In this document: piece by piece, positions 2,958 to 32,000 of the stretch
Layout of the letters: every line of letters starts with the position of its first letter
Position numbering within the stretch: the first letter of the stretch is position 1
Assembly: GCA_963704755.1 (NCBI GenBank)
Contig: OY969938.1
Location: 1,050,001-1,082,000 of the forward strand
Origin: an uncultured Chloroflexia bacterium
GTDB taxonomy: Bacteria > Chloroflexota > Anaerolineae > Anaerolineales > Anaerolineaceae
Length of the DNA stretch: 32,000 nucleotides
Reading direction: 5' to 3'
Translations under genes and position numbers: made by a program
The notes under the pieces: generated by a model
Seen by the model: the letters and a program-made list of their open reading frames with translations, nothing else
What the model was told of the DNA's origin: nothing
Databases searched by the model: none

Positions 2958-3899
2958 CTATTCGCGCAAGCTCTTCCCGGTCAGGCTGAGAAAGACCGTT
3001 TCCAGGTCAGCCTCCATAATTTGCAGCGAAGTCACCTGGGCATCCAGGTGGTTGGAGATTTCGAGCACATCCACCAGTGTCTTTTGGGTATCCGTAGACT
3101 GAATATCGAGCGTATGGTCGCGCTGAGAGACCGCCCGCACGGTAGCTAAAGACATGGCCTGGTGGCGGACTTCCTGGATCACGCCATCGACGATGCCAAT
3201 GCGGACCATCCCCGCCCCCATACTACGGATCAGGTTGGCCGGCGTATCCAGGGCGATCACCTGGCCGTGGTCCACGATGGCTACCCGCCGGCATAAGCGC
3301 TGGGCTTCTTCCATGTAATGGGTGGTGTATATGACGGTCAGCCCGGCCTGGTTCAAGGCCTGCACGCTTTCGAAGATCGCATTGCGGCTTTGCGGATCGA
3401 CTCCCACCGTCGGCTCGTCCAGGAACAGGATTTCCGGGCGGTGCAGCAATCCGGCCGCCAGATTCACCCGGCGTTTCATCCCGCCCGAATAATTCTTGAC
3501 CGGCTCTTTAGCCCGGTCGGCCAGTTGGACCAGATTCAGCACTTCACTGACCCGGTCGCGCAGCGCTTTTCCTTTCAGCCCGTAGATCTGCCCGAAAAAG
3601 GCCAGGTTGTCCCAGGCGGACAGAGTTGGGTAAAGCGCCAGCTCCTGCGGTACCAGCCCGATGCGAGCTTTGACCGCTTTCATATGGCCGCGGATATCCA
3701 CGCCATCCAGCAGAATCTGGCCGCTGGTCGGCTCGAGCAGGCCGGCCATCATCGAGATGGTGGTGCTTTTTCCGGCCCCGTTCGGTCCCAACAGGCCAAA
3801 AATTTCGCCTTTAGCAATCGAAAATGAAATTCCACGAACGGCCTGGTTCTCGCCGTAAGATTTATGTAAATCGCGAATACTTAGAAATTCTCCGTTCAT
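2958..3899 (-). CDS. ABC transporter ATP-binding protein (ABC-2/YvfR-like)
   Basis: Walker A GPNGAGKST, signature YSGGMKRR, Walker B ILFLDEPTVGVD, H-loop TTHYMEEA. The track ORF begins at GTG 3935. I prefer ATG 3899 (MNGEFLSIRDL...) because GAAAGGGA lies about 6 nt upstream. Confidence 0.92.
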   Translation of the reverse strand: MNGEFLSIRDLHKSYGENQAVRGISFSIAKGEIFGLLGPNGAGKSTTISMMAGLLEPTSGQILLDGVDIRGHMKAVKARIGLVPQELALYPTLSAWDNLAFFGQIYGLKGKALRDRVSEVLNLVQLADRAKEPVKNYSGGMKRRVNLAAGLLHRPEILFLDEPTVGVDPQSRNAIFESVQALNQAGLTVIYTTHYMEEAQRLCRRVAIVDHGQVIALDTPANLIRSMGAGMVRIGIVDGVIQEVRHQAMSLATVRAVSQRDHTLDIQSTDTQKTLVDVLEISNHLDAQVTSLQIMEADLETVFLSLTGKSLRE

Positions 3900-4010
3900 T
3901 GCAATCCCTTTCACGAACAAGTTATCGACGTTCACAGGATAGCCCCGAACGGGTCACCTCCGTTAGTCCGCATCGTCACCTGCCGGTCATATGACTTTTT
4001 AGGATAGATT

Positions 4011-8361: not shown

Positions 8362-8418
8362 TCCAAAGCTCTTTGGTGGTTTCGGTTCACTAAATCTAAG
8401 GCCGAGGGTTCACGCCGT

Positions 8419-11413: not shown

Positions 11414-11421
11414 ACATCCTG

Positions 11422-13984: not shown

Positions 13985-14002
13985 AAGGACTTGAATTGTT
14001 TT

Positions 14003-15268
14003 ATGGGAAAAAACCCCAATAATCACCATACTCGCCCAGTCCGTGTTCTGGTTCTCACACCCTTTTATGCGCCCGATTTCGGGCCATCTGCACCGATTTT
14101 TACCGCCCTGTGTGAAGACCTGCAACACAATGGCTGCCAGGTAACCGTCGTGGCCGGTATTCCTCATTACGGCAATGCCCGTAAGTTATACCCTTACCCC
14201 CGGCGGCTGTTCGCTCGCGAAGTAATAAACGGGGTACGTATACTCAGAATATTTGTCTTTGACGTTCCGAAAAGCTCACTTTCCCGCAGGCTGCTCTATC
14301 ATGCTTTCTTCAACCTTTTCTCGACCATCGCGGCGCTGTTCGCTGGCCGCTCTGACGTGATATTGGCCGACGCGCCTTCCTTATGGAGCGGCTTGCCCTT
14401 GCTCACCCAAGCGATCATCCCCGGAAAACCGTATATCTACATCATTCACGATATCTATCCGGAAGTACTGGTCAAATTGCAGGTGCTTCACAACCAACGC
14501 ATGATTAAGTTCATCGACCAAATCGAAGGATTTTTCTATCGTCATGCGTCGCAAATATCTGTACTTTCGGATGGATTTAAGAAAAATTTACTTGAGAAGG
14601 GAGTACCCGAAAGGAAAATAGCCGTTATCCCGGTTTGCGTCGATGCTGATTTCGTCCAGCCGATGGATTGTGATCCGGGCCTATGCCAGGAATGGGACCT
14701 GGAAAGTAAATACGTCGTTTTGTATGCCGGCAACATGGGCCTTTCCCAGGGACTGGAAAATGTGGTCGAGGCGGCTCGCCAATTGACCCGGTTCCCGGAT
14801 ATTGCGCTTGTCCTGGTCGGTGAAGGCGCCAGCAAACCAGGATTACAAAAACTGGTGAGCCAGTATGGCCTGGCGAACATCCATTTTTACCCCTTCCAAC
14901 CGCGCGAGAAAGTTCCCCAGATCTATTCTCTCGCGCACGTCTGCCTGGTTTCACTCAATCCGAGTATTGTGACCGAATCGGTTCCGTCCAAGACCTTCAC
15001 CATCATGGCTGCCTGCCGGCCCATCATTGCCACGGTCGACCCTAACACCGAGGTTGGCCGGCTCTTGGATGTGGCGGGCTGCGGACTGCGTGTGGATCCC
15101 GAAAAACCCAACTCGCTCGCCGAAGCCGTGATCCGCTTATACCATGACCGCGACCTGGGCGAAAAAATGGGAAAATTGGGCCGCAATTTCGTCGTTTCCC
15201 ATTTTTCCAGAGGGGTAGCCTCGGAATATTATCATCACCTCATCCTCCAATGTACGGACGGAAGATAA
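14003..15268 (+). CDS. Glycosyltransferase family 4, WcaI/WbuB-like
   Basis: VRVLVLTPFYAPDFGPSAPIFTALCEDLQHNGCQVTVVAGIPHY and ESVPSKTFTIMAACRPIIA match the WcaI/WbuB-type pattern. The start is either ATG 14003 or TTG 13991. Confidence 0.88.
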   Translation: MGKNPNNHHTRPVRVLVLTPFYAPDFGPSAPIFTALCEDLQHNGCQVTVVAGIPHYGNARKLYPYPRRLFAREVINGVRILRIFVFDVPKSSLSRRLLYHAFFNLFSTIAALFAGRSDVILADAPSLWSGLPLLTQAIIPGKPYIYIIHDIYPEVLVKLQVLHNQRMIKFIDQIEGFFYRHASQISVLSDGFKKNLLEKGVPERKIAVIPVCVDADFVQPMDCDPGLCQEWDLESKYVVLYAGNMGLSQGLENVVEAARQLTRFPDIALVLVGEGASKPGLQKLVSQYGLANIHFYPFQPREKVPQIYSLAHVCLVSLNPSIVTESVPSKTFTIMAACRPIIATVDPNTEVGRLLDVAGCGLRVDPEKPNSLAEAVIRLYHDRDLGEKMGKLGRNFVVSHFSRGVASEYYHHLILQCTDGR

Positions 15269-15269
15269 T

Positions 15270-16460
15270 ATGATTCCCAGATACGGCCCCACCTACACCT
15301 ATTCCGATTTGGTGAAGAGTTATCGCCTGGCCGGCCAGGCGGATGTCGCAGCCCAACTTTGTGACCGCCTGTCTGAGCTATACCAGGTCAAACACGTGTT
15401 TTTGCTGGAGAGCGCCCGGGTGGGTCTATACACCATTTTAAAAGCCTATGACCGCCCCGGTGAAGTCATCATGCCGGCCTATAACTGCATCGTCGTCCCA
15501 GAGGCAGTCGATTTTGCCGGGTATACGCCAGTTTTTGCGGACATTGATTACCCATCGCTCAGCATGAACCTGGATACGCTGCGTGCCGTCGTTTCTCCAC
15601 GAACGACCGCGCTGCTGGCCACCCATTTGTTCGGAATTCCATGCCAATTGGATGAATTGGTCGACTACGGCCACCGGCAGAACATGCTGGTCATTGAAGA
15701 CGCCGCGCCTGCTTTAGGCGCTCGATTCGACGGTCACATAACCGGCAATTTTGGCGACGCAGCCATCCTGAGCTTCCAGTCAGCCAAGGTGATTGCTGCC
15801 GAAAGCGGGGGCGCCTTGCTCACCAATCGAGACGACCTGGCCGCAAAGGTCAAGAATGTCCTGGAGCATGCGGCCATGCCGGGTGGAAATTTGCGTCTGA
15901 TGGCTCAGGCCTTTGCTCGAAAATTTATCACCGCCCCGCAAATCTATCCATCCACCAAAATGGCTTACCGGCTGTTGAAATCGGAGCCTATGTATGAAAT
16001 TGTCTCACCTCTGCGAAAAGAACCGGCAGAGTTCTTAAGATATTGCTCGAATTTTTCCTGCGCGCTGGTTCTGACCCAGATCGAAAAACTGGGATCGAAC
16101 CTGAGCCGCAGAAGGCACCTGGCCGAAATATACATTCACCGCTTGGCAAACAATAACGGCATAAAAAAGGTGCAATATCCGGCCGGAAGCGCTCCGGCCT
16201 GGATTCAATATCCGATACTCACCAATGAAAAAAGTAATCTGTATCAATATATGCAACACAGCCAGGTGGACCTGAGTTGGACCTATCGCTATTCATGCGC
16301 TGAAAGTTATAAATCCCAAAAATGTCCCATTGCTTACAAGGCGGCCAATACGGTCCTCGGGCTGCCGACCTACCCGTCATTGAAAGATGAACAGGCCGAA
16401 TACATTTGTCAGCTTGTCAACTCATATGGTGGGGAGTTCGAGAGTGACGAGAGGGTATGA
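15270..16460 (+). CDS. DegT/DnrJ/EryC1/StrS-family PLP-dependent aminotransferase (sugar aminotransferase-like)
   Basis: 396 aa. Contains PAYNCIVVPEAV, IEDAAPALGA and the PLP-lysine region LSFQSAKVIAAESGGALL. It starts 1 nt after the GT4 stop. Confidence 0.82.
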   Translation: MIPRYGPTYTYSDLVKSYRLAGQADVAAQLCDRLSELYQVKHVFLLESARVGLYTILKAYDRPGEVIMPAYNCIVVPEAVDFAGYTPVFADIDYPSLSMNLDTLRAVVSPRTTALLATHLFGIPCQLDELVDYGHRQNMLVIEDAAPALGARFDGHITGNFGDAAILSFQSAKVIAAESGGALLTNRDDLAAKVKNVLEHAAMPGGNLRLMAQAFARKFITAPQIYPSTKMAYRLLKSEPMYEIVSPLRKEPAEFLRYCSNFSCALVLTQIEKLGSNLSRRRHLAEIYIHRLANNNGIKKVQYPAGSAPAWIQYPILTNEKSNLYQYMQHSQVDLSWTYRYSCAESYKSQKCPIAYKAANTVLGLPTYPSLKDEQAEYICQLVNSYGGEFESDERV

Positions 16461-19546: not shown

Positions 19547-20572
19547 ATGACCAAACACCCAACCCTCTTTATTACCCAACGCGGGCAATACCACCAACAG
19601 GCTGCCCTGGATGCAGCCCCGGCCGACCTGGACGTGACCATGATGCGGGCGCCTTCCAAGGAGGAAATAATTTCCCTCCTGCCCGGTAAAGAATTTTTGA
19701 TCACCGAACGGGCCGGCGTCATCGACGCAGACATCATTCGCGCCGGCAAGGATCTGCGCCTGATCCAACGCTTAGGCTCGCAAACCCACGACATCGACCT
19801 GGACGCGGCCCAGGCAGCGGGCATTCCGGTCTGCTATCTGCCAATCCAGACCTGCATCATGGTTGCCGAGCACCTGCTCATGCAAATGCTGGGCCTGGCC
19901 AAACGATCCCCAGAGATGATGCGCATCGTGATGAGCGCCGAAAATTTCGGTCACGAGCCCACCCGCTGTAATGAAGATACATTTGCCTATAACTGGTCCG
20001 GCCGGGAAGATATCCGTGGTTTGTGGAAGTCAACGGTGGGAATCCTGGGGATGGGTGAAATTGGTTTTGAATTGGCCCGCCGCCTGCGCAACTTTGGCTG
20101 CAAGGTTATTTACAACAAACGCAACCGCCTGCCTGCTCACGCCGAACGCGAGCTGAATGTAAGCTATGCCACCCGCGAAGAACTGCTGGCCGCCAGCGAT
20201 TTCGTCTGCATCCTCTTGCCTCTGCTCAAAGAGACCGAGCAAAGCCTGGACGAAAAATTCTTTGCCAGCCTGAAACCCGGCGCAATTTTTGTCAGTTCCG
20301 GTGGCAGCGGCGTCATCGACGAAAACGCCCTGGCCGGAGCTATTTCTTCCGGCAAGTTGTATGGCGTCGCGGTGGACAATTTCACCTATGAACCGATCCG
20401 CCCGGATTGCCCTCTGCTTGCTCCAGCCGCTCGCCCGGACACGAACGTGATCTTGACCCCCCACACCGCCGCGGGCACCGTGCCGGTGGTGGACAAAGAC
20501 CTGCGTATCGATGATTACCAGAACCTGACCAGGCTCCTCAACAACGAAGAGCTTGAATTTCGTTTGGTATAA
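19547..20572 (+). CDS. D-isomer-specific 2-hydroxyacid dehydrogenase (phosphoglycerate/glyoxylate reductase-like), NAD(P)-binding
   Basis: 341 aa. Rossmann motif GILGMGEIGFELARRL, then the catalytic-region pattern ending in LTPHTAAGT. Confidence 0.88.
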   Translation: MTKHPTLFITQRGQYHQQAALDAAPADLDVTMMRAPSKEEIISLLPGKEFLITERAGVIDADIIRAGKDLRLIQRLGSQTHDIDLDAAQAAGIPVCYLPIQTCIMVAEHLLMQMLGLAKRSPEMMRIVMSAENFGHEPTRCNEDTFAYNWSGREDIRGLWKSTVGILGMGEIGFELARRLRNFGCKVIYNKRNRLPAHAERELNVSYATREELLAASDFVCILLPLLKETEQSLDEKFFASLKPGAIFVSSGGSGVIDENALAGAISSGKLYGVAVDNFTYEPIRPDCPLLAPAARPDTNVILTPHTAAGTVPVVDKDLRIDDYQNLTRLLNNEELEFRLV

Positions 20573-20972: not shown

Positions 20973-22595
20973 TCAGGTCAGGAAAGTGATTTCCTCAGCC
21001 GGGCCAACCGGTGCATTTTCCGGTTTACCGCCGGCCATCAAGAAGCCGATCCGGTTCAGGTTCGTCTCGGCAGCCGGCCGCGTCTCGCTGATCTGGCCTT
21101 CGTAGATGACGCTGATCACATCGCTTAGGGCCATAATCTCGTCCAGTTCGGAAGAGATGATTAGCACCGCGCAGCCGCGGTCGCGCGCTTCGACGATCTG
21201 CTTGTGGATAAACGAGGCCGCCCCAACATCCAACCCACGGGTCGGCTGCATAGCCACCAGCACGGTTGGGTCGCACCACAGCGAGCGGGCCAGAATGACT
21301 TTCTGCTGGTTTCCGCCGGAAAGCTTTTTCGTTTCCATCGTGGGGTCCGGCGCGCGGATGTCGAATTTTTCCATCAGCGCTTCGGCATGTTCGTTCATCA
21401 CCTTGAACTGGCGCATCCCTTTTTTGGCATACGGCGGGCGCTCATAATTCTCCAGCAGCAGGTTATCGGTGATGCTCATTCCCAGCACCAGGCCTTCAGT
21501 CTGCCGGTTTTCCGGGATCAGCTCGATCCCGGCCATGATCCGTTTAGCCGTTTCCAACTTGGATATGTCTTCATCGCGGTAGATGATTTTTCCCGATTCC
21601 AGCCCGTGCAGGCCCATCATCGTCTGGACAAGCATTTGCTGGCCGTTGCCATCCACGCCTGCCAGGCCATGAATTTCACCGGCCTTGAGGCCCAGGTTGA
21701 GCCCGTTTAATTTCAAAGTGCCCAGTTCATCTCTGGCAGATGCGTCGCGCAATTCCAGGGTAATTGCCCCACTCTTGCACGGGTTTTTAGCGACGGTCAA
21801 GTCAACGGCCTGGCCAACCATCAATTCGGCCAGTTCGAAAGTGGTGGTATTACAGGTGTTCACCGTCTGGATGACCTTACCGCGGCGCATAACCGTAACC
21901 CGGTCGCTGATATGCAGCACTTCCTTCAGCTTGTGGCTGATGAAGATAATGGTCACCCCATCTTCGCGCAGCTTTTGAATCAGCTTGAACAGCTCTTCGG
22001 TTTCCTGGGGGATCAGCACTGCGGTGGGCTCGTCCAGGATGAGGATACGCGCACCGCGATACAGGGCCTTGATGATCTCCACTTTCTGCTGTTGGCCAAC
22101 GGTCAGCTCCCCGACCAGCCTCGTCAGGGGAACATTAAGGCCAAAATCATCCGCCAGAACCTTGGCTTTACTCAAGGCCTGGTCCAGGTCCAACAGGGGA
22201 TATTGTTTAGACTTCAACCCCAGGATGATGTTTTCGATCACCGAGAAGGTTGGGATGAGCATGAAATGCTGGTGCACCATTCCGATTCCCAGGGCGGTTG
22301 CATCCTGGGGAATATGAATTTGGGCCTTTTTACCGCGTACAAAAACTTCGCCTTCGTCCTTCTGGTACAGGCCATAGACGACTTTCATCAAGGTGGATTT
22401 ACCCGCCCCGTTTTCGCCTAACAGCGCGTGGACTTCGCCAGAATAGATCTCCAAATCGACGTGGTCGTTAGCGACGACACCCGGGAATTTCTTGGTGATC
22501 CCTTCCATCTTCAAAACGACATCCCGGCCTTCGGTCGAAAAAACCTGGTCACCGTTGATGGGTTCGGGGTTGATTTCAGTAGTCATTTCGCTCAT
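20973..22595 (-). CDS. ABC transporter ATP-binding protein with two ABC cassettes (BMP/nucleoside-sugar type, NupO/RnsA-like)
   Basis: 540 aa. First cassette: GENGAGKST, LTVGQQQKVEI, ILILDEPT. Second cassette: GVDGNGQ, LSGGNQQKVILAR. It is the last gene of the operon. Confidence 0.9.
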   Translation of the reverse strand: MSEMTTEINPEPINGDQVFSTEGRDVVLKMEGITKKFPGVVANDHVDLEIYSGEVHALLGENGAGKSTLMKVVYGLYQKDEGEVFVRGKKAQIHIPQDATALGIGMVHQHFMLIPTFSVIENIILGLKSKQYPLLDLDQALSKAKVLADDFGLNVPLTRLVGELTVGQQQKVEIIKALYRGARILILDEPTAVLIPQETEELFKLIQKLREDGVTIIFISHKLKEVLHISDRVTVMRRGKVIQTVNTCNTTTFELAELMVGQAVDLTVAKNPCKSGAITLELRDASARDELGTLKLNGLNLGLKAGEIHGLAGVDGNGQQMLVQTMMGLHGLESGKIIYRDEDISKLETAKRIMAGIELIPENRQTEGLVLGMSITDNLLLENYERPPYAKKGMRQFKVMNEHAEALMEKFDIRAPDPTMETKKLSGGNQQKVILARSLWCDPTVLVAMQPTRGLDVGAASFIHKQIVEARDRGCAVLIISSELDEIMALSDVISVIYEGQISETRPAAETNLNRIGFLMAGGKPENAPVGPAEEITFLT

Positions 22596-22600
22596 GATTT

Positions 22601-23659
22601 TTACCCTTCTTCCTGGAAAGGCGCCCCACTGGCTGACGGTGCGCGGGCGTTGCGCATCAAAGCTACCAGAGCGATCAGGGTAACCACGTAGGGCAGCATC
22701 AACAAAAGTTGGTACGGCACGTGGATTCCATAAGCCTGTAAGCGGATCTGGAGGGCATCCCCCAAACCGAACAGCAGCGTTCCCAGAAAAGCACCAACCG
22801 GGTTATAGCGGCCGAACACCACCGCGGCAAAGGCGATAAACCCACGGCCGGCCGAGAGGTTTTCCTGGAAAGCATTGATCCCCGAAGCACTGACCAGCGC
22901 GGAACCGCTTATGCCGGCGATCGCACCGCTGATCAACACCGCGATGTAGCGCACCCGGTTGACATTGATTCCAACCGTGCTGGCGGCCATGGGGTGCTCG
23001 CCGACGGAACGCAGGGTCAGCCCCCAGGATGTTTTGTAGAAGATAAACGACATGACCGGGATCAACAACAAAGCCAGGTAAACGATGATGTTGTGCGAGA
23101 AGAACGCTTTGCCCACGTAAGGCAGGTCACTTAAGATTGGGATATGGATAGCCTGAAAACCAGGGGCCGAAACGAAGGCCTGGTTGACGTAAAGCAGCCG
23201 GTAGCCCAGGGCAGTTGCGGCCATGGCAAACAGGTTAAGCGCCACAGCACTGACGATCTGGTTGCTGCGCAGGGAGATCGAGAAAACGGCGTGAATCAGG
23301 CCGACCAGCATACCGGCGATGGCTGCGGCTATCAGTCCCACCCAGGGACTGCCGCCGCGGTCCGAAGCCGCGTAAGCCACGAACGCACCGATGAGCATCA
23401 TCGATTCGAGCGCCATATTCAGCACACCCGAAAGCTCACTGACCAGGCCACCCAGGGCGGCCAGCAAAAGGGGAGTCATGGCGATCAAGGCCGCCCGAAC
23501 GAATTCGGGGGCTACCAGGATATCGAGAATACTATCCAGTGTATCACGGGTTTTTCCGCCTACCATTTGCAAGGCAAGCCCAATGATCACCAGCGCACCG
23601 ATAAAGATCAGGAGTTTACGAACACTACTGCGGGCAAAGAACTGTTTTAGTTTTACCAT
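22601..23659 (-). CDS. ABC transporter permease (BPD_transp_2 type, NupQ/RnsD-like)
   Basis: 352-aa polytopic ORF. Its start overlaps the upstream permease stop by 7 nt (ATGGTAA). Confidence 0.88.
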   Translation of the reverse strand: MVKLKQFFARSSVRKLLIFIGALVIIGLALQMVGGKTRDTLDSILDILVAPEFVRAALIAMTPLLLAALGGLVSELSGVLNMALESMMLIGAFVAYAASDRGGSPWVGLIAAAIAGMLVGLIHAVFSISLRSNQIVSAVALNLFAMAATALGYRLLYVNQAFVSAPGFQAIHIPILSDLPYVGKAFFSHNIIVYLALLLIPVMSFIFYKTSWGLTLRSVGEHPMAASTVGINVNRVRYIAVLISGAIAGISGSALVSASGINAFQENLSAGRGFIAFAAVVFGRYNPVGAFLGTLLFGLGDALQIRLQAYGIHVPYQLLLMLPYVVTLIALVALMRNARAPSASGAPFQEEG

Positions 23660-24756
23660 TTTCGATCTTCTCCCTGTAGTTTGCGGGCGATTTCCACAAT
23701 CTTCGGAGAGGATGCAGCCAAAACGGCCAGAATCGCCAGTACACGCACCAGGTCAACTAACTGAGCAGGCAGCTTGGCGATTGCTTCCATAGCAACTGCC
23801 CCTGTCTGAAGACCGGAGAAAAACAACGCGGACAGGCCAACGATGAAGGGCTCAAAACCACCCAACAACGCCACCGCAATAGCGTCATAACCCGTATTGG
23901 GTGCGAAACCAGAAATCAACCGGGTCTGGTAACCCAGGATTTCAGAGGCTCCGGCCAGGCCAGCCAGCGAACCGCTTATAAAGAAAGCTAATAGGAATAC
24001 CTGATCTGAACGAATACCCGCATGGAAAGCAGCAACCGGGTTTTGCCCGACGATGCGCACTTTTTGTCCCAGGGTGGTATAGCGCATTACAAAGAACATG
24101 ATCAGCATGGCCACAACCGCGATCACCAACCCCAGGTGCAATTGCGTATGTGGGATCAGTTTAGGATACATCGTGTTGCTCACCACCGGCCATGAGGTTG
24201 GCGCATCCGTGTGCCCGCCGGACTTGATCGGCCCGGAGACCATGTAATCAACCAGGTAAATCCCGATGTAGTTCAAGAGAATAGTGGAAATAATTTCGTT
24301 AGACCCGTAGCGTATCTTTAGAAACGCGGGGAACAATGCCCACAACCCGCCGGCAACAAAAGCCGCCAGGGTGGCTAAAAGCATATGTAAAGGACCAGGC
24401 AGATTTGGAAACTTGCCAGCCACGATAATCGCGGCTAATGCGCCTGCATACATTTGCCCAACTGCACCGATATTGAACGCTCCCGCTTGAAAAGCAAATG
24501 CGATTCCCAAACCGCATAATAAAAGCGGGACGGCTGTTTTCAATGTCTCAGATGTTTGAACGAGATTCCCAAACGAACCTTGCCAAAGTGCTTGATAGGC
24601 CGTAATCGGGTCGAAACCCATGAGGATCATGATAACGGCACCGATAAGAATTGCTATGAGAATCGACAATAAAGGCAATCCAATACTTGCAAAGGGCAGA
24701 CTAAACCTGGCTTTCTGCTTCAATGGTCTTAGAGTCTCGCTAAATTCTTCCGACAT
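23653..24756 (-). CDS. ABC transporter permease (BPD_transp_2 type, NupP/RnsC-like)
   Basis: Polytopic ORF. I prefer ATG 24756 (MSEEFSETLRPLKQKARF...) with GGAGAA 6 nt upstream. The track TTG 24819 would read through the GC hairpin at 24786-24808. Confidence 0.86.
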   Translation of the reverse strand: MSEEFSETLRPLKQKARFSLPFASIGLPLLSILIAILIGAVIMILMGFDPITAYQALWQGSFGNLVQTSETLKTAVPLLLCGLGIAFAFQAGAFNIGAVGQMYAGALAAIIVAGKFPNLPGPLHMLLATLAAFVAGGLWALFPAFLKIRYGSNEIISTILLNYIGIYLVDYMVSGPIKSGGHTDAPTSWPVVSNTMYPKLIPHTQLHLGLVIAVVAMLIMFFVMRYTTLGQKVRIVGQNPVAAFHAGIRSDQVFLLAFFISGSLAGLAGASEILGYQTRLISGFAPNTGYDAIAVALLGGFEPFIVGLSALFFSGLQTGAVAMEAIAKLPAQLVDLVRVLAILAVLAASSPKIVEIARKLQGEDRKW

Positions 24757-24785
24757 AAAAGTTCTCCAGGCTTCCGTGAGACGAA

Positions 24786-24808
24786 GGGTGCGGGGCAGGC
24801 CCGCACCC
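24786..24808 (-). other. GC-rich intra-operon hairpin between the binding-protein gene and the first permease gene
   Basis: GGGTGCGGG (24786-24794), loop GCAGG, CCCGCACCC (24800-24808). There is no U-tract on the transcribed (minus) strand, so it looks like an mRNA-stabilising or processing hairpin rather than a full terminator. Confidence 0.5.
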
Positions 24809-24828
24809 TTTTCAATCAAAACAATTAA

Positions 24829-25899
24829 TTATTGAGATATAGTGAAGCTTAGTTTGCCAGCCAGGTAATCGTTGATGGCGGACTGAACTTTGTCCTGAAC
24901 ATCCTGGGGAACGAAGTCGCCCCATTGGCCCATCTTCTGGGTGCCTTCAGCGAAACCGCTGATGAAGGTGGTGTTCCCTTCCAGTTTACCGGCCAGGAAC
25001 TGCTGAGCAACTTCCATGTACACACCGGGGATATCCTGGACGCCGCTGGTGATGACGGTATCGGGAGCCAGCGCGTAGTTATCGCCACTCCAACCGCCGA
25101 TGACCATTACGCCACTGTCCTGGGCCAGTTTGATGGCCGGAGGAGTGAAGGCATCGCCCATGATGACGAGAACATCGACACCGCGGTCGATCTGGGCCTG
25201 AGCAACCTGCTGGCCCTTGACCACATCGTCCCAGGAACCCACGAAGGAAACGTTCACATCAGCGTCGGGATTGACAGCCAGGGCGCCAACCGAAATGTTG
25301 TCGGAATCGGCAGTAACCTGGGGAGCATCTTCAGCAGCCACGACACCGATTTTATTGTTTTTGGTCATCAAACCGGCAGCCATACCAGCGAAGTAACCCA
25401 GCTCACCGAATTTGAAGTTGGTACCAACAATATTGTTGCCGGCCGTGGTGGCGTTGATCTGGACGAACATGATGTTCGGGAAATCCGGAGCAACAGCAGT
25501 CAGAGCATCACCCCATTCATAACCATGAACGAAGATGAGGTCATAACCTTGTTGCGCATACTGGCGCAGCACGTTCTGCTGCTGGGCAGCGGCTACATTT
25601 TCGGAATAAGCCATTTCCCAACCGAGTTTGTCGTGGATTTCCTGGACGCCTTCCAGAGCTAACTGGTTCCAACCATGATCGTTGGTCGGGCCCGAGGTAA
25701 CCATGGCCACTTTGTAGGTTTTACCCTCAGCGGTCGGCACAGCCGTGGAATTCGACAATGCCAGGGTCGGTTGTGCAAGGCTTGCGACTGTGGGAGCAAC
25801 AGCTTCTTGCGTCGGGGTAGCTGCCTGCGAGCAACCAAACATAGCGATCGCAGCAATTACGAAAATCAGCGAAAGTTGAACCAACTTGTTGAATTTCAT
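24829..25899 (-). CDS. BMP-family (Med/PnrA/TmpC-like) ABC substrate-binding lipoprotein
   Basis: Signal peptide with lipobox AMFGC, then an A/P/T-rich linker. MVTSGPTNDHGWNQ is the BMP-type motif. GGAGAGAGA RBS on the minus strand directly upstream of the ATG. Confidence 0.9.
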   Translation of the reverse strand: MKFNKLVQLSLIFVIAAIAMFGCSQAATPTQEAVAPTVASLAQPTLALSNSTAVPTAEGKTYKVAMVTSGPTNDHGWNQLALEGVQEIHDKLGWEMAYSENVAAAQQQNVLRQYAQQGYDLIFVHGYEWGDALTAVAPDFPNIMFVQINATTAGNNIVGTNFKFGELGYFAGMAAGLMTKNNKIGVVAAEDAPQVTADSDNISVGALAVNPDADVNVSFVGSWDDVVKGQQVAQAQIDRGVDVLVIMGDAFTPPAIKLAQDSGVMVIGGWSGDNYALAPDTVITSGVQDIPGVYMEVAQQFLAGKLEGNTTFISGFAEGTQKMGQWGDFVPQDVQDKVQSAINDYLAGKLSFTISQ

Positions 25900-26317
25900 T
25901 CTCTCTCCTATTTTCAGGTTTTGTAAAATTGGGAATTCATTGTCGTGGAATAATATGCAACCACTATCCAGCTAACCAGTTTCCAGCTAAAACGAGTTAA
26001 ACCCTCTCTCTTAATTTATCCGTGTAGCCTCCTTGAATTAAGATATGATTTCACCCGTGCGAATATCGCGGTTTGACAAGAGCTGCCTCTATACAAACCT
26101 GCTGCTGAATTCGATCCGTTGTTCCTCGGTTGTTGTTCTTAACCATGGGCAGTAAAATTTACACAAAGCTCTTACTGATAAACAAGCGGTTACCAGGGAA
26201 AACCACCCCATTTTCCGGAAGGTTAGGAATTTTGAATTTTTATTCTTCGTTTCAGTGGAATAACCTGATTTTAGCAAAAACAAATACATCTGTCAACCAC
26301 AAGTTTACACTTGTAAT

Positions 26318-26723
26318 CTATATGTTAATTGATAAATTATTTACTGAACAGTAATTTACCGTTTTTGCCGAAGATTTCCAAAACCCCATCCAATTCTCGC
26401 AGTAGAGGGTCCACCAGGAATAGTCCTCAACCCAGGCCCGGCCCATCATAGCGGGGCAATCCGGTCGATTTCCCCATATATTTTGGACAATGGCCTGGAA
26501 AAAGTCTTTTCGGAGTGAACAGGTTGTAAATATGCACATTGGGCGATTCGATGGTGCCCATATTATCAGGAATATTCCAATTCAGGTAGTTATTTATAGG
26601 AAAATACGCCCGTTCTTTGCACTTTTGTAAAATTTCCAAGAATCGAGGGGCAAGGTTACTTTTCAGCGCCGGGTAAAAGCCTATTCGTGCCATCACCCGA
26701 TTGTCCAAATCAATTTGTTCCAT
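26318..26723 (-). pseudogene. Possible frameshifted remnant of a small gene of unknown function
   Basis: Two overlapping minus-strand ORFs in adjacent frames (26427..26723 and 26318..26539) both read protein-like. They could be joined by a 1-nt shift near the A5/T5 runs at about 26509-26520 (GGAAAAAGTCTTTTCGG). The region is AT-rich. No family recognised. Confidence 0.3.
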
Positions 26724-26759
26724 TTTGAAACACGCTGCCGGCGCGCACCCTCATCCCAA

Positions 26760-26815
26760 CCTTCTCCCTCGCTGGAGAAGGCGGAAAACAATTTCCGGCT
26801 TTCGAAGCCGGAAAT
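26760..26815. other. Two adjacent short hairpins
   Basis: First: CCTTCTCC CTCGCT GGAGAAGG (26760-26781). Second: ATTTCCGGCTT TCG AAGCCGGAAAT (26791-26815). Confidence 0.6.
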
Positions 26816-27132
26816 ACGCCGGACTATCAATCGTTCGTCAATTCACCAGGCTGACAATGGTGTTCCTCGCCCAAATTGGCATTAATTCCGCCCACCTACC
26901 CGCTTCAAGTACCATTGCTCGATCATAAATATGCCAAATGTCATAATTGAAGCAGGATTAAGAGTTGTTTAGAATGAATAATGCGTTTTAATGTGGCTTA
27001 ACTATTTTCAGGCCGGCACGCATAAGAACGCTTCCCTTTGGTTCCACTCCATCGATATAAGAAAACCTGGATAGATCAATTTCTTTTTAGCTCAGGTTGC
27101 ATGCAGCATGCAGGAAAGCTCAGGCGAACTTC

Positions 27133-28113
27133 ATGATCCCTCAAATTCCTTTCCCCATCGAGAAATTACGCCTCAATCTGCTTTACCAGGATCCCATCGA
27201 ACTGGAAAAAGCTAAGGCCAGCTCGGCTGCGTCCAAGTCGCTTTCCAAAGTCAGTGAAGCCTACCATGACTTATACTTCCCCGCCCCCGCCGAGGACCGG
27301 CCATATATTTTCGCCTCGATGGTCCTCTCGCTGGACGGGAAAATGGCCTTCCCCGACAATCCCCAGGGACCGGTGGTCGCTTCGGCCAATGCCATCGACC
27401 GCGAAGGCGGGCTGACCGATTTTTGGGTCCTGAATGTGCTGCGTGCCTACGCCGACGCGATCGTGGTCGGGGCGCGCACCCTCCAATCCGAGCCGGATGC
27501 CGTCTTCTCCTGCCTGGACCACGATTTGCTGGCCGAGCGCAAAGACCTCCTGGGCAAACAACGTGAATGCCCGCTGACTATCGTGGTTTCGCTGGATGGG
27601 CAGGACATTCCCCTTAATCATTCTATTTTCTCCGTCCCTGAAGTCCAAACAATACTGGCCACCTGCCATCGCGGTGGCCAGTATTTGCAATCTCAATGTG
27701 GATCGGATGCCATGTTGATCGGCCCCTTCAACGCTATCACTGATATCGATACCGTCGAGCTGCTCCGCCAGGTCAAACAAGGTTTCCGGGCCCACAAGAA
27801 AATCGTCCTGATGACCGGCGAAAACGAACCGGACGCCCGGGTGCTGATGTACTGTCTGCGTAAAATCGGCGTTGGGCACCTGTTGATCGAATCACCGACC
27901 TACATGTGGCTCTTGATGGGCCAGGCCATGCTGGACGAATTCTTCGTCGATTACTCGACCCTTTTCATCGGCGGGTTGTTCACCCCCGGTTACAACAACG
28001 GCTTTACTTCCCTGAGCCACCCGCACAGCCGCTTCCTGGTCATCGCCATGCACCAGCACAGCTTCCTGTTCACCCGCCAGAAACTTATCTACGGCCTATC
28101 CACTCAGTCCTGA
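27133..28113 (+). CDS. RibD C-terminal domain (pyrimidine reductase / DHFR-like fold) family reductase, without a deaminase domain
   Basis: PYIFASMVLSLDGKMAFPDNPQGPVVASANAIDREGGLTDFWVLNVLRAYADAIVVGARTL is a typical RibD_C core. There is an N-terminal extension of about 60 aa and no cytidine-deaminase-type zinc motif. The start is ATG 27133, with TTG 27097 less likely. Confidence 0.8.
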   Translation: MIPQIPFPIEKLRLNLLYQDPIELEKAKASSAASKSLSKVSEAYHDLYFPAPAEDRPYIFASMVLSLDGKMAFPDNPQGPVVASANAIDREGGLTDFWVLNVLRAYADAIVVGARTLQSEPDAVFSCLDHDLLAERKDLLGKQRECPLTIVVSLDGQDIPLNHSIFSVPEVQTILATCHRGGQYLQSQCGSDAMLIGPFNAITDIDTVELLRQVKQGFRAHKKIVLMTGENEPDARVLMYCLRKIGVGHLLIESPTYMWLLMGQAMLDEFFVDYSTLFIGGLFTPGYNNGFTSLSHPHSRFLVIAMHQHSFLFTRQKLIYGLSTQS

Positions 28114-28138: not shown

Positions 28139-29557
28139 ATGGAAAATGTTGATCTGATTATCAAAAACACAACCATCGTCACGATGGATACCGCTACCTC
28201 CATCCTGCCAGACCACGCAATCGCGGTCAAAGGCAGCAACATCATCGCCATCGAGCCCAGCGCGAGCCTGCTCGAAAAATACACCGGCGCCAAAGTCATT
28301 GACGGGATCGACCGCTTTGTCTTTCCGGGTTTTGTCAACACCCACACCCACCTGTTCCAGAATGGGCTCAAGGGCCTGGGGCGAGACAAGCTTTTGTTCG
28401 ACTGGCTGGACAGTTCCGTCCGCCGCGCGCTGCGTGAAATTCGCTATGAGGATGTGTACAACGCGGCCGTCGCCGGCTGCCTGGAAAATATCCGCAGCGG
28501 CGCGACCACTGTGCTGGATTACATGTACGCTCATGGCAGCCAGTTAAGCCTGGACGATGCCGTCATTCAGGCCTTCGAAGATACCGGTATCCGCGGCATT
28601 TTGGGGCGGGCCCACACCAAGACCGAATTCTTGCCCAAAGGCAGCGAATGTGAGATCAACGAGACCGAAGATATGTTCTTCGCAGATGTTGACCGCCTGA
28701 TGGCAAAATTAGCCGGCAACGGCAGGATCTCGCTAGCCATGGCTCCCGGCATCATTTGGGATATGAGCGAAGAGGGTTACCGCCAACTCCGCCGCTATGC
28801 GGATAAATACGGCATCCGCATAACCATGCACCTGGATGAAACCGGCGAGGACGACGAATTTGCCCTGAACAAGTTTGGCGTCAACGCTGCCGAATTACTG
28901 GACCGCAACGGTGTGCTCGGCGAAGATTTTATCGGGGTTCACCTGGTCCACCTCGACCCGAAAACCATCGAGCTCTTGCAGAAACGCCAGGTCAAGGTCT
29001 CGCACAACCCGGTTTCCAATATGATCCTGGCTTCTGGGGTCGCCCCCATCCCGCACCTGTCCGAACTCGGGCTGGTGATCGGCCTGGCGACCGACGGCGC
29101 CGCCAGTAACGATACCCAAAACATGCTGGAAGTGGTCAAAACCACTGCCATCTTGCATAAATGCATCCAGCGGGATGCAACTCTCTTCCCCGCCATCGAG
29201 GTGTTGAAAATGGCCACCATCGGCGGCGCCCGTGTGGCCGGCCTGGACCACGAGATCGGCTCGATCGAGGTCGGCAAGAAGGCCGACTTCTTCCTGTTCA
29301 ATCCGCGCAACGTGGCCTGCGTCCCGGTAGCCGATCCGATTGCTTCCCTGGTGTACTCGGCCAATCCCACATCCATCGATACGGTCGTTATCCACGGCCA
29401 GGTCGTCCTGGAAGACGGCCAGTTCCGCACCGTGAATGAAGAAAACGCCGTCTACGCCTTGCAAGATTCGGCTTTTCGCCTGCGGCAGCGGGTTGGCCTG
29501 GGCTGCCAGATCAACGGCCAGGAAATAACCGTCGGGCCATTCCACAAACAGGCTTAG
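28139..29557 (+). CDS. Amidohydrolase-superfamily deaminase/chlorohydrolase-like enzyme (COG0402: guanine deaminase / MTA-SAH deaminase / TrzA-AtzA group)
   Basis: 472 aa. Metal and catalytic motifs FPGFVNTHTHLFQ (HxH), ITMHLDET (HxxE), GVHLVHL and GLATDGAASN. AAAGGAG RBS 5 nt upstream. Confidence 0.88.
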   Translation: MENVDLIIKNTTIVTMDTATSILPDHAIAVKGSNIIAIEPSASLLEKYTGAKVIDGIDRFVFPGFVNTHTHLFQNGLKGLGRDKLLFDWLDSSVRRALREIRYEDVYNAAVAGCLENIRSGATTVLDYMYAHGSQLSLDDAVIQAFEDTGIRGILGRAHTKTEFLPKGSECEINETEDMFFADVDRLMAKLAGNGRISLAMAPGIIWDMSEEGYRQLRRYADKYGIRITMHLDETGEDDEFALNKFGVNAAELLDRNGVLGEDFIGVHLVHLDPKTIELLQKRQVKVSHNPVSNMILASGVAPIPHLSELGLVIGLATDGAASNDTQNMLEVVKTTAILHKCIQRDATLFPAIEVLKMATIGGARVAGLDHEIGSIEVGKKADFFLFNPRNVACVPVADPIASLVYSANPTSIDTVVIHGQVVLEDGQFRTVNEENAVYALQDSAFRLRQRVGLGCQINGQEITVGPFHKQA

Positions 29558-29668: not shown

Positions 29669-30358
29669 ATGACCCAATTGAACCCATTCGAACAATCGCT
29701 CGAAATCGAAGCTCGCCGCCCATTTTTGAGCAAAGGCGAGTATGTCTATCGCTTGTTGAAAGAAAAAATTGTTAACGGATACCTGGAACGGAACAAAATC
29801 TACACCGTGGTAGAAATCGCCGAAAGCCTGGGCGTCAGCCGGACACCCGTCGGCAAGTTGGTCAAGATTTTGGCTTCCCAGAACTACGTCATCCAGTTCC
29901 CAGGGGTTGGCTTCAAAGTCAAGGAACTGACCATCGACGATATCCGCGAGACCTTGATCATTTCTGGTGCGTTGGAAGAAGCTATTCTGCACAAGATCGT
30001 CAAAGATGGCAAATCGCTGTCTGCCAACCTGAAGGAAGCCATGCGCAACACCTGGTCGGCTTTCGAGGAGCAGGCGCCCGAGCTGTACACGCAGGCTTCC
30101 GCAGACTACCACAAAGCCCTGTATGCGCTCTCGGGCCTGCACCGCGTGACCGAAATCTTGAGTGAAAACATCCTGGCGCACGAGATCTGGTACCGCGAAG
30201 GTGCCATCCGCTACCCCGAACTGATTAAAAAAATGATCCTCGATCACGAGGCGATCCTGGATCTGATCCGTCACCGCGAGGACCAAAAAATTAACGGCGT
30301 AATTGCAGCCCATGTCGAAAACTGCGAGCAAGTTTTAATCAAAGTCATCAAGGATTGA
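29669..30358 (+). CDS. GntR-family transcriptional regulator with an FCD (FadR-like) C-terminal domain
   Basis: The wHTH is YTVVEIAESLGVSRTPVGKLVKILASQNYVIQFPGVGFKV. The helical C-terminal domain carries His residues (ADYHKALY, DHEAILDLIRHRE). ATG 29669 is preferred over the track start 29621. Confidence 0.85.
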   Translation: MTQLNPFEQSLEIEARRPFLSKGEYVYRLLKEKIVNGYLERNKIYTVVEIAESLGVSRTPVGKLVKILASQNYVIQFPGVGFKVKELTIDDIRETLIISGALEEAILHKIVKDGKSLSANLKEAMRNTWSAFEEQAPELYTQASADYHKALYALSGLHRVTEILSENILAHEIWYREGAIRYPELIKKMILDHEAILDLIRHREDQKINGVIAAHVENCEQVLIKVIKD

Positions 30359-30434
30359 ACCGTGGTATTTAAACCTTGTTACAGTTCAGCAGGACTTGAT
30401 CGGTAATTCAAATTTACTTTCCAAGGAGTCCGAA

Positions 30435-31166
30435 ATGAAACGCTTTCAAGATAAGGTCGCGATCGTAACAGGCGCCGGTAGAGGACTGGGGGCTCAATAT
30501 GCCAAGGACCTCGCGCGAGAAGGGGCTGTCGTTGCTATCTGGGATATCAACGCTACCAACCTGCAAAAAGTCAAGGAAGAGATCGAATCTGAGGGGGGAC
30601 GGGTGGTCACCTCGACCACCGATATCACCGATTTCAGCCAGGTTGAAGCCGCCGTTGCCGAGATCGTCCGCCAGTTCGGCAAAGTGGATATCCTTATCAA
30701 CAACGCGGCATATCACAAGGCCCAATCGGTCTTCGAAACCTCGGTCGAGGATTGGAAGAAACAGATCGACACCAATTTGAATGGCTCTTTTTATTGCACC
30801 AAAGCCGTCCTGCCTTATATGTTAGAGAAACAATACGGAAAAATCTTGAACATCGCCTCGGCGGCGGCCAAAGTTTATTTCCCCGGTTTTGGCGCCTATT
30901 CGGCCTCCAAAGCAGGCATTATTGGGTTTTCGAACGTCCTCTCCGAAGAAGTCAAATACAAAAATATCAACGTCAATTCCGTGTACCTGGGGATGACCAA
31001 CACCGAGTACACCCGCGAGCGGATCGGCAGCGATCCTTCCGTCACCATTTCGCTCAACGAAATGATGCAGCCGCCGGAAGTAGCGAAAGTGGTCCTCTTC
31101 CTGGTTTCGGACGAAGCCGCCCCCATCAAAGGCGCAGCCGTTGACGTATTCGGAAACCGCTATTAG
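30435..31166 (+). CDS. Short-chain dehydrogenase/reductase (classical SDR, FabG-like)
   Basis: TGAGRGLG cofactor motif, NNAA, and the catalytic S...YSASK. AAGGAG lies 7 nt upstream of ATG 30435. The track start 30396 is rejected. Confidence 0.9.
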   Translation: MKRFQDKVAIVTGAGRGLGAQYAKDLAREGAVVAIWDINATNLQKVKEEIESEGGRVVTSTTDITDFSQVEAAVAEIVRQFGKVDILINNAAYHKAQSVFETSVEDWKKQIDTNLNGSFYCTKAVLPYMLEKQYGKILNIASAAAKVYFPGFGAYSASKAGIIGFSNVLSEEVKYKNINVNSVYLGMTNTEYTRERIGSDPSVTISLNEMMQPPEVAKVVLFLVSDEAAPIKGAAVDVFGNRY

Positions 31167-31177
31167 GAGCGCAAAGC

Positions 31178-32000
31178 GTGAAAACATCTATCAACAAACT
31201 AGCCGTCAAAGTCGTCAAAGAGATCATCGCCCGCGAAGATGAGATTGGTGTCAAAGTCATCCACATGAACTGCGGCGCAACCCTGATCGACATGGGCCTG
31301 AACGTCAAGGGAAGCAACGAAGCCGGGCTCCTCTTTACGCGGGTCACCCTGGGCGACATGGCCACCGTCAACCTGGGCACCTGGAAGCTGGACGACGACT
31401 ACATCTTCGGCTCGGTCGAGCTGTTCGTCACCGAGCCGCTGGTCGCCTGCCTGGCCTCGCAAATCGCCGGCTGGCAACTGGGCAGCGGTGAATTCGCCAC
31501 CATTGGCTCCGGCCCGGCCCGGGCCCAGGCCGTCATTCCCAGCGATTATTACCTGGACATGACCCCCTACCGCGACCGCAACGACGAAGTAGTGCTGTGT
31601 ATCCAGGATATCCGCTATCCGGACGATGCGATCGCCCTGGAAGTGGCCCAGGCCTGCAAAGTGGCGCCCGAAAACGTGTACCTGTTGATTGCACCCAGCG
31701 CCTCGATTGTAGGCTCGATCCAGGTCTCGGCCCGCATGATCGAGGAAGTCTGCCACAAGATGCACGAAAAGGGCTTCGACGTCTCCAAGGTGATCAATGC
31801 CCGCGGCCGCACGCCGGTCGCCCCGCTGGTAATGGACGAGGTCAAGGCCATCGGCCGCATCAATGACGCCATTCTGTACGGCGGCGACACCGAGTTCTGG
31901 GTGGACGCCAGCGACGAAGAAATCGCCGCGGTGGTCGAAAAACTGGTTTCCAAAACGTCATCCCCCTATTACCCCGAGTTGTTCGGGGTGGTGTTCGAGC
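31178..32000 (+). CDS. Methenyltetrahydromethanopterin cyclohydrolase (Mch) family protein, function here probably different (3' end outside the window)
   Basis: Absent from the ORF track. GTG 31178 has AGGAG 8 nt upstream, and 274 codons are open to the window end. The translation contains GATLIDMG, EAGLLF, EPLVACLASQIAGWQL, ATIGSGPARAQ, APENVYLLIAPSASIVGSIQVSARMIEEVCHKMHEKGFD, PVAPL and AIGRINDAILYGG. These match the conserved blocks of Mch as I remember them from methanogens and methylotrophs. Confidence 0.8.
   Translation, partial: MKTSINKLAVKVVKEIIAREDEIGVKVIHMNCGATLIDMGLNVKGSNEAGLLFTRVTLGDMATVNLGTWKLDDDYIFGSVELFVTEPLVACLASQIAGWQLGSGEFATIGSGPARAQAVIPSDYYLDMTPYRDRNDEVVLCIQDIRYPDDAIALEVAQACKVAPENVYLLIAPSASIVGSIQVSARMIEEVCHKMHEKGFDVSKVINARGRTPVAPLVMDEVKAIGRINDAILYGGDTEFWVDASDEEIAAVVEKLVSKTSSPYYPELFGVVFE

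Follow-up and report, generated by a model that had tools for sequence, protein, structure and literature searches.

A stretch of 32,000 nucleotides from an uncultured Chloroflexia bacterium (GenBank assembly GCA_963704755.1, contig OY969938.1, positions 1,050,001 to 1,082,000; hereafter the window) ends in a gene pair that raises a simple question: what does a homologue of methenyl-tetrahydromethanopterin cyclohydrolase (Mch) do next to a short-chain dehydrogenase/reductase (SDR)? To our knowledge, the Mch fold has one job only, the one-carbon (C1) step of methanogens and methylotrophs. The original prediction, made from the letters of the window, regarded the two genes as a bicistronic module that reduces an aromatic ring and then opens it by hydrolysis, either in a phloroglucinol-type pathway or on a purine- or pyrimidine-like aza-ring. 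Our comparative analysis reveals that the pairing is non-random and that the two genes form the conserved head of a multi-gene operon in anaerobic bacteria. This operon may serve the anaerobic breakdown of a purine- or pteridine-type N-heterocycle, in which the Mch-fold enzymes would hydrolyse a cyclic amidine or imine; we regard this reading, to which gene content and sequence lead us, as one that could equally well prove right or wrong.

The SDR gene opens with an ATG at 30435, preceded by AAGGAG at 30423–30428 (read from the sequence), and is closed by a TAG at 31164–31166. Its product of 243 amino acids (aa) carries the TGAGRGLG, NNAA, Ser and YSASK motifs and matches Pfam adh_short with 206 bits, as expected for a classical SDR. 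After a gap of 11 nt, an Mch-like open reading frame (ORF) starts with GTG at 31178, with 8 nt between this codon and its own AGGAG (31165–31169). This ORF, designated MchA below, runs past the end of the window, which holds 274 of its 320 codons. The 274-aa part matches Pfam MCH (PF02289, 292 bits; its sole Pfam match) and scores 267.5 bits with TIGR03120 against a cut-off of 228.8. The complete 320-aa protein was read from a 5.3-kb Logan contig, L001, which shows 3 mismatches to the window in 5034 nt; the stop codon would fall at window position 32140. Both genes and their junction are thus as originally described. The proposed bicistronic unit holds in so far as the pair is tightly spaced and conserved, but it was drawn too narrowly: related loci continue unbroken into genes for E1 and E2 of a pyruvate dehydrogenase (PDH)-like complex and often into a second Mch gene, designated MchB.

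Conservation was assessed in 71 genome loci with an Mch-like gene, obtained by a scan of one genome per species. ORFs were called for each locus and clustered by BLASTP, most recurrent clusters were named with Pfam or NCBIfam, and most clusters common to at least five loci were annotated in this way. The hosts belong to the Chloroflexota, many Bacillota (including genomes labelled Clostridioides difficile, Pseudoflavonifractor and Oscillospiraceae), the Spirochaetota and the Halanaerobiales, and include one Bathyarchaeia archaeon. A same-strand SDR of one BLAST cluster directly adjoins the Mch-like gene in 50 of the 71 loci, and the order SDR-Mch-E1alpha-E1beta is preserved in 40. Counted over all loci analysed, including the window and L002, the SDR lies immediately upstream of 51 of 96 Mch-like genes with a median gap of 12 nt (n = 51). 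The original prediction had staked itself beforehand on the two genes being kept as neighbours, and they are. Independent gene calls with precomputed Pfam assignments gave the same gene order in the relatives.

The operon core is (GntR)-SDR-MchA-E1alpha-E1beta-E2, often followed by MchB, and is complemented by E3 and lipoylation genes. Its components were found at the following frequencies among the 71 loci: E1alpha, 58; SDR, 57; E1beta, 56; E2, 51; the GntR/FCD-family regulator, 22; E3, 21; lipoate ligase, 17; and lipoyl synthase, 6. Accessory genes include those for an amidohydrolase (36 loci), an ABC ATPase (28), a RibD_C-like reductase (25), a BMP binding protein (21), the large and the 2Fe-2S subunits of a xanthine dehydrogenase (XDH)-family hydroxylase (20 and 18), FMN_red (16), a DAO-type dehydrogenase (13), and Xan_ur_permease (8). 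Three layouts recur. Chloroflexota relatives display RibD_C-like, amidohydrolase, GntR, SDR, MchA, E1alpha, E1beta, E2, MchB, LplA, HyuA-like and DAO/SoxA-like genes; a minimal Clostridia form consists of GntR, SDR, MchA, E1alpha, E1beta, E2 and MchB; and gut Clostridia possess the series permease, XDH small subunit, XDH large subunit, SDR, Mch, E1alpha, E1beta, E2, amidohydrolase, RibD_C-like, E3 and a TIGR03792-family protein. The last-named protein, of about 115 aa, follows E3 in gut-type operons (17 loci, L024–L040 and others); a PDB search with it gave no informative structural relative.

The Mch-like proteins possess the Mch fold. Full-length MchA matches Methanopyrus kandleri Mch (1qlm) over its whole length (E 4e-74), with identities of 43% to this enzyme, 36% to Archaeoglobus fulgidus Mch, and 32–34% to proteobacterial Mch. 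An AlphaFold2 model (pLDDT 80.6) superimposes on authentic Mch (EC 3.5.4.27) structures with TM scores of 0.89 (1qlm), 0.88 (4gvq) and 0.88 (4fio), and these Mch structures were the only PDB matches of the model at E <= 0.001. Mch hydrolyses the imidazolinium C=N of methenyl-tetrahydromethanopterin (methenyl-H4MPT) to an N-formyl amine, that is, it performs C–N (amidine) chemistry. Arg183 and Glu186 of the A. fulgidus enzyme, which we take to be the catalytic residues, correspond to R186 and E189 of MchA. In an alignment of 46 MchA and 18 MchB sequences with six authentic Mch proteins, both residues are invariant in 64 of 64 Mch-like sequences.

The same alignment sets these proteins apart as a distinct subfamily. 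Sixty-one columns are invariant in the six authentic enzymes; MchA retains 38 of them, so that 23 are altered, and MchB retains 32. Every one of the 64 Mch-like sequences has the replacements E140Q and F280H; I96, I109, D123 and W241 are likewise fixed. Subfamily-specific residues of MchA are Q143, which lies within the window, and H285 and H288, which lie beyond its end and were read from L001 as part of a D284-H285-x-x-H288 motif. MchA and MchB share 46% identity. In a neighbour-joining tree, an MchA clade (SDR upstream, E1alpha downstream) is separate from an MchB clade (located after E2); additional clades exist, one of the branches among them being that of the archaeal enzymes. Two to three full-length paralogues were found in 22 of 71 loci. 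Four Clostridia loci (L020, L021, L041 and L042) contain a third, divergent paralogue together with a short Mch-like gene of about 240 aa. The superfamily as a whole is small, with 1033 clusters at 50% identity (E <= 1e-3).

The genomic context differs from that of authentic Mch as well. BLASTP with RFAP synthase, MtdB, Fae and other proteins from the mch locus of Azoarcus found none of them within 10 kb on either side of any bacterial locus; the sole match came from the Bathyarchaeia locus L067. In the genuine Azoarcus locus (L080), used as a control, RFAP synthase, MtdB and Fae are encoded beside mch, MtdB two genes away. The constant neighbours in our loci are the SDR and the PDH-like complex, and the bacterial loci never contain H4MPT or C1 genes. 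The fixed changes, the lost invariant columns, the absence of H4MPT genes nearby and the presence of multiple paralogues together argue for a function other than that of authentic Mch, and methenyl-H4MPT is very unlikely to be the substrate.

The genes directly downstream of Mch encode E1alpha, E1beta and E2 in 40 to 58 of the 71 loci, and E1alpha starts 6–24 nt after Mch in the closest relatives. The E1 is of the heterodimeric thiamine pyrophosphate (TPP) type; the E2 comprises lipoyl, E3-binding and catalytic domains. The TPP-dependent E1, the domains of E2 and the proximity of E3 and of lipoate ligase or lipoyl synthase genes are shared with pyruvate and acetoin dehydrogenase complexes. Unlike in these complexes, E1alpha lies here between Mch-like genes (the gut type being without MchB) and the hosts are strict anaerobes. 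A PDB search placed E1alpha closest to the E1alpha of pyruvate dehydrogenase. Its score with the corresponding equivalog model was below the cut-off (314 versus 394 bits), the plasmid E1 genes matched by tblastn had generic names and no more than about 40% identity, and database sources label it 'pyruvate/acetoin dehydrogenase'. A pyruvate rather than an acetoin type is therefore suggestive only.

The SDR falls below every NCBIfam equivalog cut-off, including those of three FabG models (199 versus 222, 197 versus 296, and 186 versus 298 bits), and no fab genes adjoin it, its neighbours being GntR and Mch. The pair had been regarded as open to doubt should the SDR prove to be a FabG-type housekeeping enzyme; by scores and neighbours alike, it is not one. 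The closest solved relatives are generic SDRs, and the score with the meso-2,3-butanediol dehydrogenase model is 174 bits. SDRs of related clusters are 50–79% identical to that of the window and share an FPGF family motif ahead of the catalytic Tyr. At the end of beta-2, the window protein has Asp (NAD type), and most gut members have Gly or Ala followed by Arg (NADP type). This residue was considered as a clue to the direction of the reaction and dropped, since it varies across the family and cofactor preference thus cannot fix the direction. An 'oxidise, then open' logic in the style of MtdA-Mch or FolD and a 'reduce, then open' logic are equally possible.

The accessory genes point to the kind of substrate. 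The neighbour set fits the kind used on fused-pyrimidine heterocycles, and the aza-ring alternative of the original prediction finds its counterpart here in the XDH-family hydroxylase, the xanthine/uracil permease, the nucleobase-type BMP binding protein, the amidohydrolase, and homologues of HyuA, YgeW and YgeY. These homologues show 42% (HyuA), 35% (YgeY) and 33% (YgeW) identity and occur in some Mch loci: HyuA-like proteins in four, ornithine transcarbamylase-like (YgeW-like) proteins in four, and M20 (YgeY-like) proteins in three, with none in the window. The PALP proteins encoded nearby are not YgeX-like. The solved structures closest to the BMP binding protein are those of Med, Brucella 3s99 and AtzT, and neither PnrA, which binds nucleosides, nor RfuA, which binds riboflavin, is among them; a transporter of the type seen in the window is linked to 21–28 of the 71 loci. 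The amidohydrolase of the window shares 25% identity each with SsnA (74 bits) and GuaD (112 bits) and may be either a deaminase or a ring-opening hydrolase. The active-site residues of the XDH large subunit were tried as a substrate clue and are not discriminating: the equivalents of Arg880 and Glu1261 are retained, that of Glu802 varies.

A close known counterpart of this gene set is the reductive uric-acid pathway of Escherichia coli and C. difficile, an anaerobic purine route which employs XdhD, YgfK or UacX with SsnA, HyuA, YgeW/UacY, YgeY and YgeX, among them hydrolases that cleave ring and ureido bonds, and ends in pyruvate (PMC12507026). The reductase YgfK or UacX depends for its activity on coupling to the amidohydrolase SsnA, whose gene is found together with its own (PMC12507026). 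Besides the HyuA, YgeY and YgeW homologues of some loci, the Mch clusters share with it an XDH homologue and a reductase-amidohydrolase pair. They differ in that the reductase is RibD_C-like and not YgfK or UacX, so that the SsnA-YgfK/UacX pairing of uric-acid clusters is absent; in an amidohydrolase only about 25% identical to SsnA and as distant from GuaD; and in the additional Mch-fold enzymes, SDR and lipoate-dependent E1/E2/E3. By analogy, the RibD_C-like reductase and the amidohydrolase look like a YgfK-SsnA device with a different reductase; their genes are same-strand neighbours in 22 of 25 cases, mirroring the obligatory coupling. The five-membered ring of the uric-acid pathway is a cyclic urea opened by a hydantoinase; with a ring carbon at the formamidine level instead, Mch-type hydrolysis would be the chemistry needed.

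A catabolic route of this sort might proceed as follows. The substrate would be taken up via the BMP-type ABC system or the xanthine/uracil-type permease, and funnelling into the pathway would fall to the hydroxylase and/or the deaminase. The RibD_C-like reductase and the amidohydrolase would couple NAD(P)H-dependent dearomatisation to hydrolysis, parallel to YgfK/UacX and SsnA. The partly saturated ring would next undergo an NAD(P)-dependent redox reaction catalysed by the SDR, which would act as a reductase or a dehydrogenase. MchA, together with MchB where present, would open a cyclic (form)amidine or imine C=N hydrolytically by means of the Arg/Glu pair, which would be the chemistry of Mch on the imidazolinium ring of methenyl-H4MPT. 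Finally, the lipoate-dependent PDH-like complex would oxidise the released 2-oxo-acid (or acyloin) fragment to acyl-CoA and NADH. Within this model, purine-type and pteridine-type substrates are about equally probable; the pteridine option draws on the pterin-acting members of the partner families, the Cupriavidus enzymes, and the FMN_red, FGGY kinase, DeoC aldolase and polyol dehydrogenase genes described below. In its most extreme version, the substrate may be a pterin cofactor (methanopterin or folate breakdown products) scavenged from neighbouring organisms. That bacterial 'Mch' genes mark an undescribed purine/pteridine route, with two Mch clades opening amidines, the SDR setting the oxidation state and E1/E2/E3 yielding acyl-CoA, is a statement we are marginally more inclined to doubt than to accept. 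A literature search, with subscription-only papers outside its reach, found nothing relevant on bacterial Mch homologues or on this cluster.

Several observations weigh against such a route. The 81 nt that follow the MchA stop codon in L001 (5175–5255; would-be window positions 32141–32221) do not contain an E1alpha start. They include, 8 nt after the stop, a hairpin (TGCCGC-ATTTTC-GCGGCA) followed by the T-rich ATTTTAAT. The operon may thus be interrupted in this genome. In two loci labelled C. difficile (L084 and L085, region 8717–9005), a deletion of about 600 bp has removed all but about 30 codons of the SDR, which lies between the XDH large subunit and Mch; Mch and the other genes are intact. 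The SDR may therefore be dispensable, or this cluster may be decaying; the SDR gene is intact in the C. difficile-labelled L024, L026 and L028. Three loci (L002, L017 and L019) consist of GntR-SDR-MchA-E1-E2-MchB only and have no hydroxylase, deaminase or dedicated importer nearby, and gut-type operons are devoid of MchB. FGGY-kinase genes in 8 loci, several of which also have DeoC-aldolase or polyol-dehydrogenase genes, suggest a sugar or ribityl moiety, for which the model has no explanation. The variable Glu802 equivalent of the XDH hydroxylase belongs here as well.

As a candidate terminator, the L001 hairpin is not decisive, given that terminator-like matches occur at chance rate (7 found, 6.6 expected) and that its folding z-score is only -1.8. 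When JGI metagenomes were scanned for exact matches to the sequence that follows Mch, none were found. The 4.87-Mb contig of the window encodes an E1alpha (P0224) that is 89% identical to that of L004 and an MchB (P0122) that is 85% identical to that of L075.

Among the other explanations, the best placed, though unlikely, is a pteridine, lumazine or flavin-precursor variant with acyloin logic. The ring opened by the Mch-fold enzymes would here be the reduced pyrazine of a 6,7-substituted pterin or lumazine (candidates are dimethyl-ribityllumazine, a biopterin- or methanopterin-type pterin, and pterin-6-carboxylate), and the released C2–C4 carbonyl fragment or side chain would be handled by the SDR and E1/E2/E3 in the manner of butanediol/acetoin dehydrogenases or a 2-oxoacid dehydrogenase. 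Members that act on pterins exist in several of the partner families. The ligand of Mch itself is a 7-methyl tetrahydropterin; RibD_C, of the dihydrofolate reductase (DHFR) fold, binds ribitylaminouracil; the SDRs include PTR1, DHPR and sepiapterin reductase; and pterin and isoxanthopterin deaminases are TRZ/ATZ-type amidohydrolases. The imidazolinium ring hydrolysed by Mch, however, differs from a pyrazine ring. The butanediol dehydrogenase score of the SDR and the 'acetoin' in the database name of E1alpha agree with an acyloin logic, whereas the nearest relative of E1alpha is a true PDH E1alpha. FMN_red genes and the FGGY kinase, DeoC aldolase and polyol dehydrogenase genes (the last three in 6–8 loci) would find a place in such a variant; against it stands the large distance between the BMP binding protein and RfuA (4iil, 46 bits), which binds riboflavin. 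Pterin_bind proteins are encoded in 7 loci, but their genes accompany B12-binding and URO-D genes as part of a corrinoid methyltransferase set and may be unrelated.

A precedent for pterin breakdown exists in the aerobic pterin/lumazine cluster of Cupriavidus sp. LA-1, which comprises a pterin deaminase of the amidohydrolase superfamily, an XDH-family molybdenum dehydrogenase acting on lumazine and an amidohydrolase-type enzyme, and leads via a 6,7-dihydroxylumazine isomerase and a prenylated-FMN (prFMN) decarboxylase to xanthine (PMC12391406). Amidohydrolase and XDH-family enzymes acting on a fused pyrimidine are common to both systems. The Cupriavidus cluster has no Mch, SDR or E1/E2, and the UbiD decarboxylase of the known pterin route was not seen among the annotated neighbours of our loci.

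It is improbable that the two proteins are genuine C1-carrier enzymes, with Mch as a methenyl-tetrahydropterin cyclohydrolase for H4MPT or tetrahydrofolate and the SDR as the matching methylene dehydrogenase, so that the pair would be a functional analogue of mtdA-mch or FolD handling C1 units from neighbouring catabolic enzymes. The arrangement is certainly reminiscent: in mtdA/mtdB-mch and in bifunctional FolD, too, an NAD(P) dehydrogenase accompanies the cyclohydrolase, an aminal is oxidised to an amidinium and then hydrolysed, and genuine mch genes adjoin that for methylene-H4MPT dehydrogenase. MchA also passes the NCBIfam equivalog cut-off and combines its 43% identity to the M. kandleri enzyme with intact catalytic residues. 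DAO/SoxA-like amine dehydrogenases, encoded in 13 loci, pass C1 units to folate in other systems. The dehydrogenase of the pair, however, is a classical SDR, which MtdA, MtdB and FolD, as far as we know, are not, and it sits in a heterocycle-catabolism operon without C1-carrier genes; the BLASTP survey detected neither H4MPT biosynthesis nor C1 genes in any bacterial locus. The clostridial hosts, C. difficile among them, are not known to produce H4MPT. Two to three full-length divergent paralogues per operon exceed the need of a single C1 step, and E140Q and F280H are fixed where authentic enzymes are invariant.

The original form of the prediction assigns to the SDR the NADPH-dependent reduction of a carbocyclic or barbiturate-like trione and to the Mch-like enzyme the cleavage of the dihydro ring, in the style of phloroglucinol reductase and dihydrophloroglucinol cyclohydrolase (DPGC). 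It is barely credible, even with the tight coupling of the two genes, the NADP-type cofactor site of most family members and the ability of an XDH-family enzyme to make barbiturate from uracil. In Clostridium scatologenes, an SDR reductase is likewise encoded beside a ring-opening 'cyclohydrolase', and the ring is dearomatised and then hydrolysed, but DPGC is a Mn2+-dependent member of the 'cyclase' family that cleaves a C–C bond by retro-Claisen reaction (PMC10470551), as opposed to the C–N (amidine) hydrolysis of Mch. Because of this family membership, DPGC is neither Mch-fold nor homologous to the window protein, which matches PF02289 alone, and the supposed precedent falls. Resemblance to phloroglucinol reductase at the level of the SDR would not be diagnostic of this pathway. 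The partners expected from it are missing as well. The BKACE triacetate lyase (TAL) and (S)-3-hydroxy-5-oxohexanoate dehydrogenase are absent from the called genes of L002, L003, L075–L078, L084 and L085 and from the annotated neighbour clusters, and TfD, thiolase and butyrate/acetate kinase genes were not found among the annotated neighbours of Mch loci. Finally, this reading has no place for the PDH-like complex, for the RibD_C-like reductase or for the deaminase-type amidohydrolase.

The features of the window that belong to the cluster or border on it are listed in Table 1. In the Chloroflexota and several Bacillota loci, the SDR is directly preceded by a GntR-FCD gene. The D-2-hydroxyacid dehydrogenase possibly belongs to the system, because in three related Chloroflexota loci an orthologue with 70–72% identity comes shortly after MchB-LplA; a more distant fourth locus, L060, also has one (59% identity).

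Table 1. Features of the catabolic cluster and its surroundings in the 32,000-nt window
Feature	Position	Strand	Basis or remark
D-2-hydroxyacid dehydrogenase	19547–20572	+	orthologues in related loci
BMP-family ABC importer, divergent from catabolic genes	20973–25899	-	profile matches
BMP importer, double ATPase	20973–22595	-	part of BMP-family ABC importer
BMP importer, permeases	22601–23659 and 23653–24819	-	part of BMP-family ABC importer
BMP importer, binding protein	24829–25899	-	part of BMP-family ABC importer
RibD_C-like (DHFR-fold) reductase	27133–28113	+	longest ORF from 27097; constant amidohydrolase neighbour
Amidohydrolase (TRZ/ATZ, guanine-deaminase, SsnA superfamily)	28139–29557	+	HxH, HxxE, H and D motifs
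GntR/FCD-family transcription regulator, probable operon regulator	29669–30358	+	L001 gene call; longest ORF from 29621
Classical SDR oxidoreductase, conserved upstream partner of MchA	30435–31166	+	TGAGRGLG, NNAA, S/Y/K, FPGF; adh_short
AGGAG ribosome-binding site, overlapping SDR stop codon	31165–31169	+	read from sequence
MchA, Mch-fold cyclohydrolase homologue (274/320 aa in window)	31178–32000	+	PF02289, TIGR03120

The divergent BMP importer operon is separated from the RibD_C-like gene by an ORF-poor stretch of about 1.2 kb (25900–27096), which has no ORF of more than 100 aa and a GC content of 0.38–0.48, compared with 0.52–0.61 nearby. An Rfam search of the window, this stretch included, gave no matches. 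A comparable gap of about 0.9–1 kb, estimated from L004 coordinates, is present at the equivalent place in related loci. The first 19 kb of the window also contain an unrelated exopolysaccharide or O-antigen-type cluster at 6157–16460 (a Wzz-tyrosine-kinase fusion, a flippase, a Wzy-like protein, GT4 glycosyltransferases and a DegT aminotransferase) and a HisKA_3 kinase with an ABC-2 exporter at 149–3935.

Two further gene sets were noticed in the related loci. B12-binding, URO-D/MtaA-like and Pterin_bind genes lie beside or inside the Mch operon in L053–L055, L044, L047 and L050; this corrinoid methyltransferase-like set is found in Halanaerobiales and Spirochaetota loci and may hint at a methylated substrate. 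Also, a luciferase-like gene (PF00296) adjoins the divergent Mch paralogues of the distant Chloroflexota loci L059, L064 and L068. In Chloroflexota uricolytic clusters, YgfK is replaced by a putative F420-dependent reductase of the luciferase family (PMC12507026).

The existence of a conserved, multi-phylum operon with diverged Mch paralogues, an SDR and a PDH-like complex implies a second chemistry for the Mch fold and, if our reading is true, this would be its first function outside C1 metabolism. A systematic mis-annotation would be corrected at the same time: the Mch-like genes pass the NCBI equivalog cut-off and are automatically named methenyl-H4MPT cyclohydrolase in hundreds of anaerobes. 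Cultured carriers of the operon exist, such as Pseudoflavonifractor gallinarum DSM 107456, Pseudoflavonifractor sp. MSJ-37, Clostridium sp. 1001271st1_H5 and C. difficile HC132. In gut Oscillospiraceae, Pseudoflavonifractor and some C. difficile lineages, the operon is found beside xanthine-type permeases and molybdenum hydroxylases. It may therefore be another route by which gut microbes consume purines or pterins, in addition to the reductive uric-acid pathway solved recently.

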